Source: Escherichia coli
GTDB taxonomy: Bacteria > Pseudomonadota > Gammaproteobacteria > Enterobacterales > Enterobacteriaceae
Assembly (NCBI RefSeq): GCF_044324785.1
Contig: NZ_CP172127.1
DNA length: 64,000 bases
Strand: one strand, 5' to 3'
Numbering within the stretch: position 1 is the stretch's first letter; each line of letters starts with the position of its first letter. The position numbers and the translations under genes are program-made. The notes below the pieces were generated by a model. It did no database searches, was not told the origin of the DNA, and saw only the letters and a program-made list of their open reading frames with translations. Positions 30,506-37,807 of this stretch are shown here, piece by piece.

Positions 30506-30746
30506 TCCCATTACATCAATGCTTCACAATATACATAGTCCGACTGTACGCCACATCTTCAGGGTTATTAATGGGATAACCTTTCAGCCACGGCTTGATT
30601 AATCGTCCATTGGTATATTGATAAATTGGTGCAATCGGTGCTTGCTCCATGAGGATTTTTTCTGCCGCATTGTAATCGGCATTACGCGCTTGGTGATGCT
30701 GCCAACTTACTGATTTAGTGTATGATGGTGTTTTTGAGGTGCTCCA

Positions 30747-31022
30747 GTGGCTTCTGTTTCTATCAGCTGTCCCTCCTGTTCAGCTACTGACGGGGTGGTG
30801 CGTAACGGCAAAAGCACCGCCGGACATCAGCGCTATCTCTGCTCTCACTGCCGTAAAACATGGCAACTGCAGTTCACTTACACCGCTTCTCAACCCGGTA
30901 CGCACCAGAAAATCATTGATATGGCCATGAATGGCGTTGGATGCCGGGCAACTGCCCGCATTATGGGCGTTGGCCTCAACACGATTTTACGTCACTTAAA
31001 AAACTCAGGCCGCAGTCGGTAA
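30747..31022 (+). CDS. insA: IS1 InsA
   Basis: 91-aa ORF (GTG start) [43 protein letters not shown]..., recognised as InsA. Confidence 0.95.
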
Positions 31023-31444
31023 CCTCGCGCATACAGCCGGGCAGTGACGTCATCGTCTGCGCGGAAATGGACGAACAGTGGGGCTATGTCGGGGCTAAAT
31101 CGCGCCAGCGCTGGCTGTTTTACGCGTATGACAGTCTCCGGAAGACGGTTGTTGCGCACGTATTCGGTGAACGCACTATGGCGACGCTGGGGCGTCTTAT
31201 GAGCCTGCTGTCACCCTTTGACGTGGTGATATGGATGACGGATGGCTGGCCGCTGTATGAATCCCGCCTGAAGGGAAAGCTGCACGTAATCAGCAAGCGA
31301 TATACGCAGCGAATTGAGCGGCATAACCTGAATCTGAGGCAGCACCTGGCACGGCTGGGACGGAAGTCGCTGTCGTTTTCAAAATCGGTGGAGCTGCATG
31401 ACAAAGTCATCGGGCATTATCTGAACATAAAACACTATCAATAA
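30941..31444 (+). CDS. insB: IS1 InsB frame (expressed as the InsAB' transposase by -1 frameshift)
   Basis: 167-aa ORF recognised as InsB. The A6C slippery run (TTAAAAAAC, A-run at 30998-31003) lies in the insA/insB overlap. Confidence 0.93.
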
Positions 31445-32963
31445 GTTGGAGTCATTACCTACGCGCTTTAACGGTATTTTCCGTTGATGCCTGGGCCAGT
31501 ACTTTGTCGTATGCCGGATTGTTAAAGCGTGAAATATTCCCTGAATGCGTTGACGTTAACAACGTAAGGAAAGTGGAGGGTTCATTATAATCCCCTACCC
31601 ATGAGGCGCGGATAACATCAAAATTGCCGGTGTTACGGCTATCGATATAGGTTTTCCATTCCTGATTCTGCAATTTAACATCTACGCCAAGGTTCTTTTT
31701 CCACATCGATGCTACAGCAATCGCAATTTTTTGATGGTTTTCTGAAGTGTTATACAAAAGCGTCAGCTTCAGCGGTTTTTGCGGACCATAACCAGCTGCG
31801 CTCAACAAAGTTTTTGCCTGCGCATTCAGTTCTTCCTGACTCATTTGTTCAAACGGCGAAGGCTCCGGCGTAAAACCGGCAGTAACATCTGGTGTAAAAT
31901 GCCACGCTGGCTTTTCCCCCGTCCCCAACACTTTTTCGGTCATCAGGCGGCGATCTATCGTCATACTTAATGCCAGGCGAACACGCTGATCGGCCGTCGG
32001 CCCTTTTTGCGTGTTAAACGCATAATAATAGGTCCCGAGCTGCGGCGGCGTATAAACCTGCCCCGGAATATCCTTCAACAGCTTCTGATACATATTTTTC
32101 GGGAAGGATTCGGTGATATCAATATCCCCCGCGAGGTAACGCTTAGTGGCTGCGGATTCCTGATTAATTGGCAAGAAGGTCACTTTTTGCAGTACCGTTT
32201 TGGCGTTATCCCAATAATGGGTATTCGGTACCACGACCAGTTTTTCATTGACTACGCGCTCTTCAAGAACATAAGCGCCATTACCGATCAGTTTTCCGGG
32301 TTTCGTCCACTCTTTAATGCTTTCTACGTTGGCTTTTTGCACCGGGAAGAAGGCAAAGTTAGCGGTTAAATTCACAAACCACGGCAACGGTTTATCAAGC
32401 TGGATTTTCAAAGTATGGGCATCAACTGCGGTGACGCCAAGCTGGTCAGGCGTGGCTTTACCATCAATAATCGCCTGTGCGTTGTTGATTCCCGCCAGCG
32501 CGGCAAACCATGCAAATGGCGACAATGTTTTTGGGTCCACCAGACGTTGCCAGCTGTAGACAAAATCTTGCGCCGTTACCGGTGTGCCATCCGCCCATTT
32601 TGCGTTATCGCGCAAGGTAAATGTCCAGATACGGTTGTCATTACTTTTCCACTGAGTCGCAACGCCGGGGACAATCTCCCCTTTCTCGTTCTGATTCACC
32701 AGTCCTTCAAACAGATCGCGAATGACCTGAATCTCTGGCAGGCCCACGGCTTTAGCGGGATCCAGCGACGCAGGTTCATCTTTAATGTGGCGCACCAACT
32801 CCTGCTTCTCTGCCAGTACTGTGCCGCTCGGAACTTCTGCAGCATACGAAAGAGAAATGCTGCTGACCAACAGCGCACAACACGTGACTGAAACAGAGTG
32901 CTTCATAAGTTTCCCTCTAACCGACATTAAAATTGATGCGTAATTATTTGTTTCGCCTTAAAG

Positions 32964-33000
32964 AAATGCAAACAACTTCCATCAAAAAAGTGACAAAGGA
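32964..33000. promoter_or_regulatory. 37-bp conserved element, copy 1 (upstream of mppA)
   Basis: AAATGCAAACAACTTCcatCAAAAAAGTGAcAaAgGA. It matches 36954-36990 at 31 of 37 positions (exact 16-mer, 3 variable nt, exact 11-mer), in the same plus-strand orientation. It lies 58-94 nt upstream of the mppA ATG at 32906. Confidence 0.45.
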
Positions 33001-33242
33001 AGCATCAAATGTTTTAAGTATCAATATATCAAATCAGATTTAGCGTAAATAATAGTCTCCAAAATGCGGTAAAGCACATAGAACTCCGAACACTACGTTC
33101 GGGCTTCGCACGTTCAAACCCGTTTTCGGTATCATAATCAGCATCTGTCGCCATTGTGCGAAGAATAAAAAATGACCAAAACGTTGAAAGGAACTGAGAA
33201 TACGTTAAGAGAAGAATTAAATTAATGTATCAGCAAGTAGTG

Positions 33243-34142
33243 CTAAACAGCACCTTTATACTTCAGCCTATCTATAAATAATGAGAATGCCGAGCCAGCA
33301 TGTCGACGGTGTGGATAGTACAGGTGATAACCGGGTAAATCTGGTGTGAATTTATCCAAAACACGTATCAGTTTTTTTTCTTTAATAGCCCGCTCAACCT
33401 GATCATAAGGTAGATACGCCAACCCATGCCCATCAATTGCAGCATCAATGATCAGGTCTATCGTATTCAGTAAAAGCTGACCTTCCATGCGAACACGAAC
33501 TTCACGTCCACCGCGTATTAATCTCCAGCGATTTGCTGTACCCGATGTGGGAAGATACAAATTAATTGCCTGATGATCTATTAATTGTGACACTGACGTT
33601 GGAGCACTTCGACGAGAAAAATAATCCGGTGAGCCAACAATAGCCATTGGTATATCTGGCCCGATTCGAATGGCGATCATATCTTTATCCATCTCCCCAC
33701 CCAGACGGACGCCTGCATCAAAACGTTCAGAAACGACATCGGTCAAACCATAATCAATGGTAAGCTGGATATCAATTTCAGGATGCGATTTCAGGAATGT
33801 GCGCATAGCTGGTAACAATATCGTTTTTGCTGCATGTTCTACAGTAGTAATACGTATTGTCCCGGATGGGCGGTTCTGCAGATCGCTCAGGGATGTCAGG
33901 GCAGAATCTATGTCATGCAACATAGGGCCAAGAACAGACAAAAGATGCTCGCCCGCTTCAGTGGGTACAACGCTGCGCGTGGTTCGCGTCAGAAGCCGCA
34001 ATCCTAATCGTTCTTCTATACGGCGCACTATCTGGCTTAAAGCTGACTGCGCCATGCTCAGGCGGGCTGCTGCGCGAGTGAAGCTACGCTCCTCTGCAAC
34101 GACGACAAACGCCATCAGATCAGCGATTTCTTCACGCTTCAT
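33243..34142 (-). CDS. pgrR: LysR-family regulator PgrR (YcjZ), regulator of peptidoglycan-peptide recycling genes
   Basis: 299-aa ORF MKREEIADLMAFVVVAEERSFTRAAARLSMAQSALSQIVRRIEERLG..., divergent from ycjY. Length matches K-12 YcjZ. Confidence 0.9.
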   Translation of the reverse strand: MKREEIADLMAFVVVAEERSFTRAAARLSMAQSALSQIVRRIEERLGLRLLTRTTRSVVPTEAGEHLLSVLGPMLHDIDSALTSLSDLQNRPSGTIRITTVEHAAKTILLPAMRTFLKSHPEIDIQLTIDYGLTDVVSERFDAGVRLGGEMDKDMIAIRIGPDIPMAIVGSPDYFSRRSAPTSVSQLIDHQAINLYLPTSGTANRWRLIRGGREVRVRMEGQLLLNTIDLIIDAAIDGHGLAYLPYDQVERAIKEKKLIRVLDKFTPDLPGYHLYYPHRRHAGSAFSLFIDRLKYKGAV

Positions 34143-34166
34143 TCAGTATCTCCATACAATCTATTA

Positions 34167-34209
34167 ATCATTTAAATGATAGGTCTAATCATGATTTTGG
34201 GTCTAATCA
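34167..34209. promoter_or_regulatory. Candidate PgrR operator region in the pgrR/ycjY divergent promoter
   Basis: Perfect 14-bp palindrome ATCATTTAAATGAT (34167-34180), followed by two direct copies of GGTCTAATCA (34182-34191 and 34200-34209). Confidence 0.4.
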
Positions 34210-34279
34210 ACTTAATGATCAATATCTATAGTGATATCACCAACCGTCAAAACGAACCGACAACTCCATGAGGAACGGA

Positions 34280-35200
34280 ATGATGAATAATAAAGTCAGC
34301 TTCACTAACAGCAATAATCCAACCATCTCTTTGTCTGCAGTGATCTATTTCCCTCCAAAATTTGATGAAACCCGTCAGTATCCGGCAATTGTGGTATCTC
34401 ACCCAGGTGGGGGCGTTAAAGAGCAAACGGCCGGAACCTATGCCGAAAAACTGGCGGAAAAGGGATTTGTCACTATTGCTTATGACGCATCTTATCAAGG
34501 TGAAAGCGGCGGCGAGCCGCGTCAGTTAGAAAACCCATACATTCGTACTGAAGACGTCAGTGCCGTGATTGATTACCTGACAACGCTTTCTTATGTCGAC
34601 AATACCCGAATTGGTGCGATGGGAATTTGTGCCGGTGCAGGATATACAGCCAATGCTGCAATTCAGGATCGCCGCATCAAGGCCATCGGTACTGTTAGTG
34701 CGGTCAATATTGGTTCGATGTTCCGTAATGGTTGGGAAAACAATGTGAAATCTATTGATGCCCTACCATACGTTGACGCGGGTTCAAACGCCCGAACCAG
34801 CGATATTAGCAGCGGAGAATACGCCACTATGCCACTGGCACCAATGAAGGAGTCCGATGCGCCGAACGAAGAACTGCGTCAGGCCTGGGAGTATTACCAC
34901 ACCCCTCGCGCGCAGTATCCAACAGCACCGGGTTACGCTACTTTGCGCAGCCTTAACCAGATTATTACCTATGATGCTTACCATATGGCGGAAGTGTACC
35001 TGACTCAGCCGATACAGATTGTGGCGGGCAGCCAGGCAGGGAGCAAATGGATGAGTGACGACCTGTACGATCGAGCATCAAGCCAGGATAAACGCTATCA
35101 CATTGTTGAAGGCGCAAACCATATGGATCTTTATGACGGCAAAGCCTATGTGGCTGAAGCAATTTCAGTATTAGCTCCGTTCTTTGAGGAAACTCTGTAA
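34280..35200 (+). CDS. ycjY: Alpha/beta hydrolase YcjY (dienelactone-hydrolase-like, Cys nucleophile elbow)
   Basis: The ATG at 34280, preceded by GAGGA, gives MMNNKVSFTNSNNPTISLSAV... and 306 aa. The nucleophile elbow is GICAGAG (GxCxG rather than GxSxG). Confidence 0.88.
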   Translation: MMNNKVSFTNSNNPTISLSAVIYFPPKFDETRQYPAIVVSHPGGGVKEQTAGTYAEKLAEKGFVTIAYDASYQGESGGEPRQLENPYIRTEDVSAVIDYLTTLSYVDNTRIGAMGICAGAGYTANAAIQDRRIKAIGTVSAVNIGSMFRNGWENNVKSIDALPYVDAGSNARTSDISSGEYATMPLAPMKESDAPNEELRQAWEYYHTPRAQYPTAPGYATLRSLNQIITYDAYHMAEVYLTQPIQIVAGSQAGSKWMSDDLYDRASSQDKRYHIVEGANHMDLYDGKAYVAEAISVLAPFFEETL

Positions 35201-36132
35201 TGAAACATATTCAAATCCGCAATAGTGATATGGCCTGGCATATTGCTGCCAATATTCAGTTTCCACCAAATTTTGATGAGTCAAAACAGTATCCGGCGAT
35301 TATCAGCGTCCATCCTTTTGGCAGTTGTAAGGAGCAGACGTCTGGCAATATCTATGGCAAGGCATTGGCTGAAAAAGGCTATGTCGTTCTCGCTTATGAC
35401 GCCAGTTTCCAGGGAGAATCTGGTGGGGAGCCTCGTTGGATAGAAGATCCGACACAGCGCGTTGAGGATATTAGCCGTGTTATCGATTATGCAGTAACTC
35501 TGCCATATGTTGATGCTGAACGCATTGGCGTGCTGGGTGTGTGTGGGGGGGGTGGCTATGCCATTAATGCCGCGCTGACAGAAAAACGAATTAAAGCTGT
35601 AGTGAGTATTACGGGTGTTAATATCGGGCGTCTTTTTCGAGAAGGTTTCAGCAATTACGATCCGATTGGCGCATTGAATGCAATGGCGTCGCAACGAACC
35701 AAAGAGGCTCGTGGTGGAGAATTACAGATCAACGAATTACTTCCCGCCAGCCTGGATGCAGCAAAAGCCCATGGACTGACCGAACGCGATGTTTATGAAG
35801 CAACTGACTACTATAAAACACCACGCGGGCAACAACCGGGAGGTGCGACAAAAATGTTGTTCTCACATGCACAGAAAACGCTGGCCTGGGATGCCTTCGC
35901 ATTTACTGAAGTGTTACTGACTCAGCCGGTGATGGTAGTAGTTGGTGAAAAAGTCGGTGCCTTCGGTGCTTATCGTGATGGACTGGAAGTCTATGGCCGG
36001 GCGATGGTTTCGCAGGATCGTCAGTTAGTTTCGTTACCCGATTTCTCACATTATGAACTGTATGACAAACCGGAAGCAGTTCAGGAGGCGCTGGAAAAAG
36101 TTATTCCTTTTTTCAACACCCATCTGGGATAA
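35200..36132 (+). CDS. Second alpha/beta hydrolase, paralog of YcjY (GxCxG elbow)
   Basis: 310-aa ORF, alignable with YcjY along its length (e.g. QYPAIISVHPFGSCKEQTSG.../YDASFQGESGGEPR/RIGVLGVCGGGGYAINAA). Its start overlaps the ycjY stop (TAATG) and is preceded by GAGGA. Confidence 0.85.
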   Translation: MKHIQIRNSDMAWHIAANIQFPPNFDESKQYPAIISVHPFGSCKEQTSGNIYGKALAEKGYVVLAYDASFQGESGGEPRWIEDPTQRVEDISRVIDYAVTLPYVDAERIGVLGVCGGGGYAINAALTEKRIKAVVSITGVNIGRLFREGFSNYDPIGALNAMASQRTKEARGGELQINELLPASLDAAKAHGLTERDVYEATDYYKTPRGQQPGGATKMLFSHAQKTLAWDAFAFTEVLLTQPVMVVVGEKVGAFGAYRDGLEVYGRAMVSQDRQLVSLPDFSHYELYDKPEAVQEALEKVIPFFNTHLG

Positions 36133-36149
36133 GTTTCATGAGAAATATT

Positions 36150-36788
36150 ATGAAAAAAGTACTCATTCTTGGTGCTGGCGGTCAGATAGCCCGCCATGTG
36201 ATTAATCAACTGGCAGATAAACAAACCATTAAACAAACTTTATTTGCTCGTCAGCCAGCAAAAATACACAAACCCTATCCAACTAATAGCCAGATTATTA
36301 TGGGGGATGTACTGAATCATGCAGCACTGAAGCAGGCCATGCAGGGACAGGATGTTGTGTATGCCAACCTTACGGGGGAAGATTTAGATATTCAGGCAAA
36401 TTCAGTGATCGCTGCGATGAAAGCCTGTGATGTTAAACGTCTGATCTTTGTTCTTTCCCTCGGTATTTATGATGAAGTTCCAGGAAAATTTGGCGAATGG
36501 AATAATGCAGTTATTGGTGAACCCCTAAAACCATTCCGCAGGGCTGCGGATGCAATTGAGGCTTCTGGACTGGAATATACAATTCTTCGCCCTGCCTGGC
36601 TGACTGATGAAGATATTATTGATTATGAGCTTACCTCACGCAATGAACCATTCAAAGGTACGATCGTATCACGTAAGAGTGTCGCCGCATTAATTACAGA
36701 TATCATCGATAAACCTGAGAAACACATTGGTGAGAATATAGGCATCAATCAACCCGGGACTGATGGCGATAAACCCTTCTTCATGTAA
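36150..36788 (+). CDS. NAD(P)-binding Rossmann protein (NmrA/atypical-SDR-like); probably the full-length form of the K-12 ymjC remnant
   Basis: MKKVLILGAGGQIARHVINQL... (GxxGxxG-type dinucleotide fold). The ORF track starts at 36138, and the ATG at 36150 puts the Rossmann motif at the N-terminus. The link to ymjC is from memory of the K-12 annotation. Confidence 0.75.
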   Translation: MKKVLILGAGGQIARHVINQLADKQTIKQTLFARQPAKIHKPYPTNSQIIMGDVLNHAALKQAMQGQDVVYANLTGEDLDIQANSVIAAMKACDVKRLIFVLSLGIYDEVPGKFGEWNNAVIGEPLKPFRRAADAIEASGLEYTILRPAWLTDEDIIDYELTSRNEPFKGTIVSRKSVAALITDIIDKPEKHIGENIGINQPGTDGDKPFFM

Positions 36789-36806
36789 ATCAATTATATA
36801 GCTACC

Positions 36807-36838
36807 ATCGTACTGTACTATGTGCAGTACGATTTATT
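36807..36838 (+). terminator. Stem-loop after the NAD(P)-binding gene (putative terminator/attenuator before mpaA)
   Basis: ATCGTACTG-tactatgtg-CAGTACGAT followed by TTATT. Confidence 0.55.
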
Positions 36839-36953
36839 AAACTTATTAAGGTGAACTGATCAATCAGATGCGATTAACATGTGTAGAACCAGTAAGAATA
36901 AAATACGCCATGTATATAACATTACGACAATTCTAATATCTGCACATCAATGA

Positions 36954-36990
36954 AAATGCAAACAACTTCTGGCAAAAAAGTGATACAAGA
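36954..36990. promoter_or_regulatory. 37-bp conserved element, copy 2 (upstream of mpaA)
   Basis: AAATGCAAACAACTTCtggCAAAAAAGTGAtAcAaGA. See copy 1 at 32964-33000. It lies 89-125 nt upstream of the mpaA ATG at 37079. Confidence 0.45.
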
Positions 36991-37078
36991 TCGATGACAT
37001 AGCGTTGAAGAAAAGGATTTGATAATCCGCAAAATTTGCACAACACTGCCTGTAATACTTCCTGAACCAGAGACGATC

Positions 37079-37807
37079 ATGACCGTAACCCGCCCACGCG
37101 CCGAACGCGGCGCATTTCCGCCCGGAACAGAACATTACGGACGTTCATTATTGGGCGCGCCGTTAATCTGGTTTCCTGCCCCTGCAGCCAGCCGCGAAAG
37201 TGGTTTGATTCTGGCTGGCACTCACGGTGATGAAAACTCTTCGGTCGTCACGCTCTCCTGTGCTCTGCGGACGTTGACACCTTCTTTGCGCCGTCATCAT
37301 GTGGTGCTGTGTGTAAATCCTGACGGCTGCCAGTTGGGGTTACGGGCCAATGCTAATGGTGTGGATTTAAACAGAAACTTTCCGGCGGCGAACTGGAAGG
37401 AAGGTGAAACCGTTTATCGCTGGAACAGCGCCGCTGAAGAACGTGATGTCGTTTTACTGACAGGTGACAAACCTGGCTCCGAACCTGAAACCCAGGCGCT
37501 GTGCCAGCTTATACACCGCATTCAACCTGCCTGGGTGGTCTCATTCCACGATCCACTGGCCTGTATTGAAGATCCCAGACACAGCGAATTAGGCGAATGG
37601 CTAGCCCAGGCGTTTGAATTGCCTCTGGTAACCAGCGTCGGTTATGAAACACCTGGCTCTTTCGGTAGTTGGTGTGCGGATCTCAACCTGCATTGCATAA
37701 CCGCAGAGTTTCCGCCCATCTCCTCCGACGAAGCCAGCGAAAAATATCTCTTTGCGATGGCAAACTTGCTGCGCTGGCATCCTAAAGATGCAATTCGCCC
37801 GTTGTGA
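37079..37807 (+). CDS. mpaA: Murein tripeptide amidase MpaA (M14 gamma-D-Glu-Dap carboxypeptidase)
   Basis: The ATG at 37079 gives MTVTRPRAERGAFPPGTEHYGRSLLGAPLIWFP... and 242 aa. The HGDE zinc motif is present. Confidence 0.92.
   Translation: MTVTRPRAERGAFPPGTEHYGRSLLGAPLIWFPAPAASRESGLILAGTHGDENSSVVTLSCALRTLTPSLRRHHVVLCVNPDGCQLGLRANANGVDLNRNFPAANWKEGETVYRWNSAAEERDVVLLTGDKPGSEPETQALCQLIHRIQPAWVVSFHDPLACIEDPRHSELGEWLAQAFELPLVTSVGYETPGSFGSWCADLNLHCITAEFPPISSDEASEKYLFAMANLLRWHPKDAIRPL

Follow-up and report, generated by a model that had tools for sequence, protein, structure and literature searches.

In Escherichia coli K-12 the LysR-type protein PgrR (YcjZ) is known as the regulator of peptidoglycan recycling, and this name and the ycjY-ymjD-ymjC-mpaA operon are textbook annotation for that strain. 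The corresponding locus of the E. coli strain analysed here has two complete hydrolase genes and a complete reductase gene between pgrR and mpaA, and it raises the question of whether these genes belong to murein-peptide metabolism at all. The locus was analysed as part of a 64-kb stretch of DNA from this strain (the window), and all coordinates given here are positions in it. An earlier note on this DNA, made from the sequence without database searches, had implied a pathway tied to the neighbouring murein-peptide genes. The explanation favoured here, with a probability of roughly 0.6, is that pgrR, ycjY, the second hydrolase gene (hyd2) and the reductase gene constitute a mobile cassette under a PgrR operator, that its hydrolases use a Cys-His pair on a small compound other than murein, and that the control of mpaA by PgrR in K-12 came about through a deletion. 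The locus is laid out as follows.

33243-34142, minus strand: pgrR (ycjZ), an open reading frame (ORF) of 299 aa encoding a LysR-type regulator with HTH_1 and LysR_substrate domains (Pfam)
34167-34219, plus strand: operator-like motifs of the divergent promoter, consisting of dyads and CTAATC hexamers
34280-35200, plus strand: ycjY, alpha/beta-hydrolase 1, 306 aa, with the codon of Cys117 at 34628-34630 and that of His281 at 35120-35122
35200-36132, plus strand: hyd2, the second hydrolase gene, 310 aa, with the codon of Cys115 at 35542-35544 and that of His284 at 36049-36051
36150-36788, plus strand: gene for an NAD(P)-binding atypical short-chain dehydrogenase/reductase (SDR), or NmrA-like reductase, 212 aa, complete here and shortened to ymjC in K-12
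about 36808-36834, plus strand: stem-loop 3' of the SDR gene, with a 12-bp stem, which may act as a partial terminator
37079-37807, plus strand: mpaA, murein tripeptide amidase, with a Peptidase_M14 match and named as such in the RefSeq annotation of both strain N3 and K-12; a neighbour outside the cassette

This arrangement, with pgrR divergent from ycjY, a 310-aa paralog and a Rossmann protein of about 212 aa, followed by a stem-loop and mpaA, had been described in the earlier note and agrees with both the ORF list and the sequence; the stem-loop was also found by folding. The start codon of hyd2 shares one base with the stop codon of ycjY (TAATG), as likewise described. The spacer between the SDR gene and mpaA is 290 bp long and contains the hairpin, while ycjG is convergent with mpaA. 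YcjY and Hyd2 are 42% identical, neither has a signal peptide, and both match the Pfam families DLH, Peptidase_S15, Hydrolase_4 and Abhydrolase_1. The SDR ORF extends to 216 aa when its start is taken at 36138. Relative to K-12 and MS7163 there is a 12-bp indel (ATGAGAAATATT) at 36138-36149, at the start of this gene, which adds an upstream in-frame ATG (216 versus 212 aa).

The distribution of these genes in other bacteria was followed in 59 species-level loci, analysed by tblastn with the window proteins, together with plasmid and metagenome loci and pre-annotated contigs. PgrR and the two hydrolases recur together, with the reductase or without it, at protein identities of 60-93%. In the species-level loci YcjY orthologs are 67-93% and PgrR orthologs 55-89% identical, and the YcjY ortholog adjoins Hyd2 in about 45 of them. 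The counterparts of Hyd2 in Serratia, Klebsiella, Citrobacter and Shimwellia share 77-89% identity with it, and just as close are proteins of the alpha-proteobacteria Afipia, Mesorhizobium, Agrobacterium, Brevundimonas and Sphingobium, as well as of a Labilithrix genome. Genes for hydrolase 1, hydrolase 2 and an NmrA-like protein, in this order and with a LysR gene divergent from them, are found in Serratia marcescens and Afipia carboxidovorans, in Mesorhizobium (with an integrase fragment alongside) and in Labilithrix. The same order occurs on a Klebsiella variicola contig carrying an IncFII repA and a resolvase gene, and the same unit is present on a conjugative IncF plasmid of K. pneumoniae, where it is followed by the insertion sequence (IS) IS110. 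In four loci (L018, L022, L030 and L058) the gene order is permuted with the genes still together. The murein-peptide genes mpaA, ycjG and mppA are near the cassette only in Escherichia/Shigella, and in none of about 60 other loci do they lie within 8 kb of it, which argues against the functional tie to MpaA, YcjG and MppA implied in the earlier note. From this comparison of sequences, pgrR-ycjY-hyd2-reductase looks like a self-contained, horizontally mobile cassette of approximately 3.6 kb, whose position beside the murein-peptide genes would be an accident of insertion.

At the DNA level the E. coli unit can be aligned with those of Klebsiella and Serratia between 33243 and about 36860, at 76-80% identity and with the hairpin included. 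The hairpin sequence is conserved in Klebsiella, and in Serratia it is situated between two adh_short genes; in both genera it lies upstream of an adh_short gene of 277 aa. The loci compared here are L004 (9371-9422) and L068 (up to 8661). Further oxidoreductase genes (classical SDR/adh_short, flavodoxin-like and Old Yellow Enzyme [OYE]) come after the unit in Serratia, Klebsiella and Labilithrix. The comparison suggests that the E. coli unit may be a shortened form of a longer operon that once continued with an adh_short and an OYE gene. A scan against NCBIfam returned generic names only for the accessory oxidoreductases of Serratia and for PgrR. The region 36789-36952 was considered as a remnant of the Klebsiella adh_short gene, a possibility which was rejected on finding no protein-level match and homology limited to the hairpin region. 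Remnants or internal deletions of the NmrA-like reductase gene have arisen independently, in parallel to K-12, in Citrobacter sp. Awk 4 (L010), Serratia sp. PL17 (L009), Camelimonas (L019) and Microvirga (L020).

In the mppA-mpaA intergenic region of this strain the cassette is bracketed by two direct repeats with 84% identity and a spacing of 3,990 bp.

32964-33000, plus strand: left 37-nt direct repeat, in the mppA-proximal intergenic region
36954-36990, plus strand: right 37-nt direct repeat, with which the native 125-bp region upstream of mpaA begins

A 30-nt core of the repeat occurs in exactly two copies in the window against none expected. Strain EC17GD31, in which the site is empty, has a single copy of the repeat, and its mppA lies 182 bp from mpaA. 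The repeat was absent from the cassettes of other genera and is confined to Escherichia/Shigella loci, so it appears to be an Escherichia target sequence. GC content is about 0.40-0.50 within the unit and about 0.54 in mpaA and ycjG. No integrase or transposase was found among the ORFs of the 3,990-bp interval that the repeats bound, and 37 nt is long for a target duplication made by transposition. Two non-coding stretches inside this interval, 33001-33242 (242 bp) and 36861-36953 (93 bp), are without an equivalent in the cassettes of Klebsiella and Serratia.

Comparison with K-12 shows how the unit of that strain differs. The MG1655 annotation lists an intact ycjY, ymjD (21 aa), ymjC (60 aa) and mpaA, the state that the earlier note had given, and the alignment it had called for gave the end points of two deletions.

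35255-36121, no strand assigned: deletion 1 interval, absent in K-12 and MS7163-type strains (pairwise alignments)
36288-36952, no strand assigned: deletion 2 interval, absent in K-12-type strains only (alignments)

Deletion 1 (867 bp, in frame) removes codons 19-307 of hyd2, and YmjD consists of the first 18 residues of Hyd2 fused to its final 3 codons. Deletion 2 (665 bp) takes SDR codons 47-212 together with the hairpin and the non-coding DNA at the right end; YmjC is composed of reductase residues 1-46 and a read-through into the mpaA upstream region, and the right end of the deletion abuts the right 37-nt repeat. MS7163-type strains possess deletion 1 alone. The K-12 unit and the window share the locus, the regulator and ycjY, with 98.5% DNA identity, but in K-12, which has both deletions, hyd2 is cut to YmjD, the reductase gene is cut to ymjC and the hairpin is gone, whereas the window is undeleted. 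The form in this strain is complete relative to that of K-12, and it is also ancestral, as had been suggested, because it is collinear with the cassettes of Klebsiella and Serratia at about 79% DNA identity.

A census of 5,426 complete E. coli genomes found pgrR-ycjY in 5,242, the 3' part of the reductase gene in 2,942, hyd2 in 1,282 and the native mpaA upstream region in 5,409. On the assumption that the deletions are nested, the intact form accounts for about 24% of the genomes, O157:H7 among them, and the form without hyd2 for about 31%. About 42% are of the K-12 type, having lost the 3' part of the reductase gene as well as hyd2, and in about 3% the whole unit is missing. The intact form can hence be regarded as neither rare nor novel: it is present in those 1,282 genomes, it is annotated by the Prokaryotic Genome Annotation Pipeline (PGAP) with the labels 'alpha/beta hydrolase (x2)' and 'SDR family oxidoreductase', two of its three proteins have structures, and the GxCxG of YcjY had been pointed out before. 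Sequence NZ_CP026085.1 (4.83 Mb, labelled 'DH5alpha') has the intact three-gene haplotype, unlike MG1655, and its label or strain origin looks doubtful. In Shigella flexneri SFBU1023 (L037, 5280-9235) about 1.8 kb separate ycjY from a hyd2 fragment starting at residue 118; pgrR was not detected at its usual place in this locus, which is probably disrupted by an IS. A reported association of ymjC with lactic-acid resistance (PMC9602453) was set aside as confounded by phylogroup.

The 137-bp spacer between pgrR and ycjY has a palindrome, ATCATTTAAATGAT, at 34167-34180, CTAATC hexamers at 34185-90 and 34203-08, and a second ATCA-N6-TGAT at 34206-34219. This dyad is found in 34 of 38 orthologous spacers from gamma- and alpha-proteobacteria, and wherever both motifs occur in them the CTAATC-type hexamer lies 36 bp downstream of the dyad. 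Across the window the dyad is present twice in the pgrR-ycjY spacer and at one unrelated site, and the scan revealed no PgrR-type box upstream of mpaA, ycjG or mppA. PgrR has the domains, the dyad promoter and the conserved gene partnership of a LysR regulator with a divergent target operon, binding being predicted from the motifs, and the conservation marks the hydrolase promoter as the probable target of PgrR-type regulators. For K-12, PMC5934670 lists the ycjY/ycjZ spacer among the PgrR sites obtained by systematic evolution of ligands by exponential enrichment (SELEX), and describes PgrR as a 'regulator of peptidoglycan recycling' with a regulon of ycjG, ycjXF-tyrR and ycjY-ymjDC-mpaA, the last being repressed, in line with the earlier note. 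Negative autoregulation of pgrR has also been reported in K-12 (PMC10505187).

The hairpin between the SDR gene and mpaA folds with -17.2 kcal/mol (z = -3.05 versus shuffles). Co-transcription from ycjY through mpaA has been reported for K-12 only, where deletion 2 removes this hairpin. As the deletion takes away everything between SDR codon 46 and the mpaA upstream region as well, transcription from the ycjY promoter could enter mpaA in K-12. Judged from these gene arrangements, the coupling of ycjY to mpaA may be weaker in strains with the reductase gene and the hairpin, and the control of mpaA by PgrR may be specific to deletion 2 of K-12.

Both hydrolases carry a Cys at the expected place of the nucleophile, the motifs being GICAGAG in YcjY (Cys117) and GVCGGGG in Hyd2 (Cys115), as the earlier note had it. 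Positions conserved in at least 95% of the sequences in both the YcjY and the Hyd2 ortholog sets are (YcjY/Hyd2) Cys117/115, His281/284, Asp69/67, Arg81/79, Asn143/141 after strand 6, Asp232/231 and the HP.G..KEQ motif after strand 3. Tyr285/288 of an H-x-x-L-Y-D motif, which starts at the catalytic His, is conserved at the same level, and the Asp of this motif is invariant in a 17-sequence alignment. In the AlphaFold model of Hyd2, Cys115 (G-V-C115-G-G) is predicted to sit at the elbow between strand 104-114 and helix 116-127, not outside it, and His284 is placed after strand 274-279. The model has a mean predicted local distance difference test (pLDDT) value of 69, with the core above 80 and a low-confidence cap (149-229) from which no conclusion is drawn. 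The elbow nucleophile and the His after the last core strand are those of an alpha/beta-hydrolase fold, and the fold matches to the Protein Data Bank (PDB) entries 5xb6 and 2hdw have a probability of 1.00. The wider family is large, a HMMER scan giving 1,620 clusters at 50% identity with E <= 1e-10. When 68 diverse full-length representatives were aligned with YcjY and Hyd2, 63 of the 70 sequences had Cys at the elbow (Ser 2, Ala 2, Gly 2) and 63 kept the His at the catalytic position. Conservation and model together support a Cys-His pair at the canonical catalytic positions.

The Cys-His-Asp triad of dienelactone hydrolase (DLH), to which the earlier note had likened these enzymes, stands only in part. 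The elbow Cys and the conserved His are as described, but the canonical acid site after strand beta-7 is non-acidic, with GSQAG in YcjY and GEKVG in Hyd2 in place of the G-x-x-D of DLH, and the 50 best fold matches contain no DLH structure. The wider family mostly has Ala at position 252 and Gly or Asp at position 253. After strand 6, 32 of the aligned sequences have Asp and 26 have Asn, YcjY and Hyd2 both being among the latter. Candidates for the third triad residue are Asn143/141, Asp232/231 and the Asp of HxxLYD.

Of the three enzymes, YcjY corresponds to PDB 5xb6 ('uncharacterized protein YcjY', E = 1e-201 to the window protein), an entry with 12 chains, and Hyd2 has no solved structure of its own in the PDB. 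The nearest other structure is PA2218 (PDB 2hdw), a Cys-type alpha/beta-hydrolase which carries GICGWGG. Both structures were deposited as uncharacterized or hypothetical proteins, in keeping with the remark in the earlier note that the chemistry is not described; a literature search on 5XB6 and PA2218 returned no functional data, and papers on olaquindox and PhoP which mention ycjY held nothing informative on it. After these two, the fold neighbours are the fungal thioesterase DcsB, GrgF, PET46, feruloyl esterases and lipases. Some members of the hydrolase family are fused or duplicated (P0134, P0157, P0153, P0163), with two carboxymuconolactone decarboxylase (CMD)/AhpD-like domains in Bacteroides cellulosilyticus and other Bacteroidia, a cupin domain in another protein and a tandem double hydrolase in one metagenomic protein. 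In the E. coli-like protein P0002 (489 aa) Hyd2 is joined to an NmrA-like domain; with one member only, found in one assembly, this protein probably reflects a frameshift or assembly error.

The third protein matches PF13460 over the full length of the profile (1-184 of 184, E = 3e-54, 184 bits) and has the dinucleotide-binding glycine motif ILGAGGQIA at its N-terminus. It shares the full-length PF13460 domain, the GxxGxxA/G motif and a size of about 210 aa with the NmrA-like/NAD_binding_10 atypical SDRs. It corresponds to PDB 3qvo ('NmrA family protein', E = 5e-138), and its relatives include Veillonella 3r6d/4hng, ChuY and biliverdin-IX-beta/flavin reductase (BLVRB). Its identity to characterized SDRs is low, with E of about 1e-6 for ChuY and BLVRB.

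On the favoured explanation, PgrR would bind the conserved ATCA-N6-TGAT/CTAATC operator and control two translationally coupled cytoplasmic alpha/beta-hydrolases. These would use the Cys-His nucleophile pair, by way of an acyl-thioenzyme, on a small compound, be it an ester, a lactone, a thioester or a beta-dicarbonyl, and the reductase, dependent on NAD(P)H, would act on their substrate or product. A compound from the environment or from plants would be a more likely substrate than a murein peptide. The hints on function agree with a hydrolase that forms an acyl-thioenzyme and cleaves a small ester, lactone, thioester or diketone, redox steps being optional. In K-12, deletion 2 would remove the hairpin and fuse ycjY transcription to mpaA, and it is proposed that, as a result of this fusion, PgrR appears to regulate peptidoglycan-peptide recycling. 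A more far-reaching version is put forward tentatively, at slightly less than even odds. In it PgrR is the cognate sensor of the mobile cassette and not a peptidoglycan-recycling regulator by ancestry, the enzymes represent a Cys-hydrolase family (at least 1,600 clusters at 50% identity, almost all with the elbow Cys) with an unconventional third triad residue, the cassette degrades a small ester, lactone or diketone, and the K-12 'operon' is an artefact of a lineage-specific deletion.

A number of observations weigh against the cassette explanation. Over-expression of ycjY renders E. coli filamentous (PMC3614548), which would fit an interference with envelope or division chemistry. Since 97% of E. 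coli genomes retain ycjY alone, the hydrolases do not have to act together, and since a reductase gene is present in 18 of 67 loci, a fixed pathway of hydrolase followed by reductase is not general. The direct repeats fit insertion and precise deletion alike. Concerning mpaA, a simple terminator scan did not flag the hairpin, whose U-tract is weak, and the hairpin sits inside the operon in Klebsiella and Serratia, so read-through into mpaA is possible in intact strains. The SELEX and regulon lists in PMC5934670 also give ycjG and ycjXF-tyrR to PgrR, and the idea of a fusion by deletion leaves both unexplained.

Three other explanations have to be set beside it. The two hydrolases may be Cys peptidases or amidases which, with the reductase, act on peptidoglycan peptides together with MppA, MpaA and YcjG under PgrR. 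This would agree with the location of the cassette between mppA and mpaA-ycjG in E. coli, with a K-12 regulon that has ycjG beside ycjY-ymjDC-mpaA (PMC5934670), with the filamentation on ycjY over-expression (PMC3614548) and with the top Pfam match, which is to the alpha/beta core of peptidase S15, S9 and S33 being matched too. It is nevertheless considered unlikely, given that the murein-peptide genes are missing within 8 kb of the cassette in all of the roughly 60 loci outside Escherichia/Shigella, that the cassette moves on plasmids, and that E. coli strains with an empty site keep mppA-mpaA-ycjG contiguous. The lack of a PgrR-type box before mpaA, ycjG and mppA in the window points in the same direction, as do the structural neighbours, which are esterases and thioesterases and not peptidases, and the interruption of mppA by IS1 in this very strain.

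A lactonase role, in which the hydrolases quench or detoxify N-acyl-homoserine lactones or unsaturated butenolides and dienelactones and the reductase (with OYE and SDR enzymes elsewhere) reduces the ring-opened oxo-enoate, is likewise thought improbable. The best curated NCBIfam match of both hydrolases is UilS of Serratia marcescens (NF047920), an N-acyl-homoserine lactonase annotated as DLH-like, and for Hyd2 this match is full-length; the scores of 87.4 and 77.6 bits (E = 1e-24 and 1e-21), however, fall far below the 400-bit cut-off, neither hydrolase is a member, and UilS is encoded by a single urea-induced gene, unlike the two-hydrolase cassette. A similar picture is obtained with DLH (PF01738) itself. 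The hydrolases share with it the alpha/beta fold, the Cys nucleophile and the His after the last core strand, and score 37 and 36 bits against a gathering score of 21, but the matches are confined to the N-terminal half (11-123 and 10-129 of 217 profile positions), the acid position holds Ala, Val or Gly, and the model predicts a cap insertion of about 90 residues. The fusions to CMD-family and cupin domains could be taken to favour a lactonase, as could the presence of OYE and SDR genes behind the unit in Serratia and Klebsiella and the many cassette hosts that are plant- or soil-associated; the CMD fusions, though, are ambiguous, the CMD domain family in anaerobic Bacteroidia being usually AhpD-like, and ring-cleavage genes do not accompany the cassette. 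The remaining explanation, that YcjY-type proteins are Cys-dependent synthases (acyltransferases or polymerases) of short-chain poly-3-hydroxybutyrate (cPHB), with the reductase supplying the hydroxyacyl substrate, is rated as very improbable. It goes back to the GxCxG of YcjY, a lipase-box-like Cys motif as in polyhydroxyalkanoate (PHA) synthases, which had been used to nominate ycjY as a cPHB polymerase candidate, a proposal cited in PMC3709699, and it could draw on the adjacent reductase and on some downstream SDRs that weakly resemble acetoacetyl-CoA or 3-hydroxybutyrate dehydrogenases. Yet no PHA-synthase (PhaC-type) domain was matched in Pfam or NCBIfam, only GxCxG being shared; the nearest folds are hydrolases, the adjacent reductase is NmrA-like and not FabG/PhaB-like, and the similarities of the downstream SDRs are generic.

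Should the control of mpaA by PgrR be a by-product of the deletion in the K-12 lineage, the regulon and the name would not hold for the 54% of E. coli which keep the reductase gene and the hairpin, nor for many other cassette-bearing bacteria. With genes that are common and annotated and whose structures are known, this amounts to a reinterpretation and not to new genes; what is new are the mobile cassette with its conserved operator, the nested series of deletions in E. coli and the possible specificity of the K-12 operon and regulon to a deletion. The cassette also gives an entry point to a large family of Cys-type alpha/beta-hydrolases, with two crystal structures, a conserved regulator and operator, and natural knock-out haplotypes within one species.

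With regard to the neighbouring mppA gene, an IS1 element (768 bp, 30693-31460) lies inside its 3' end. The inverted repeats of the element are GGTGATGCTGCCAACTTACTGAT, and a target duplication of 9 bp, TACGCGCTT, is present at 30684-30692 and 31461-31469. The mppA ORF ends at 490 aa in this strain as opposed to 537 aa, and the murein-tripeptide binding protein MppA is probably defective in it.

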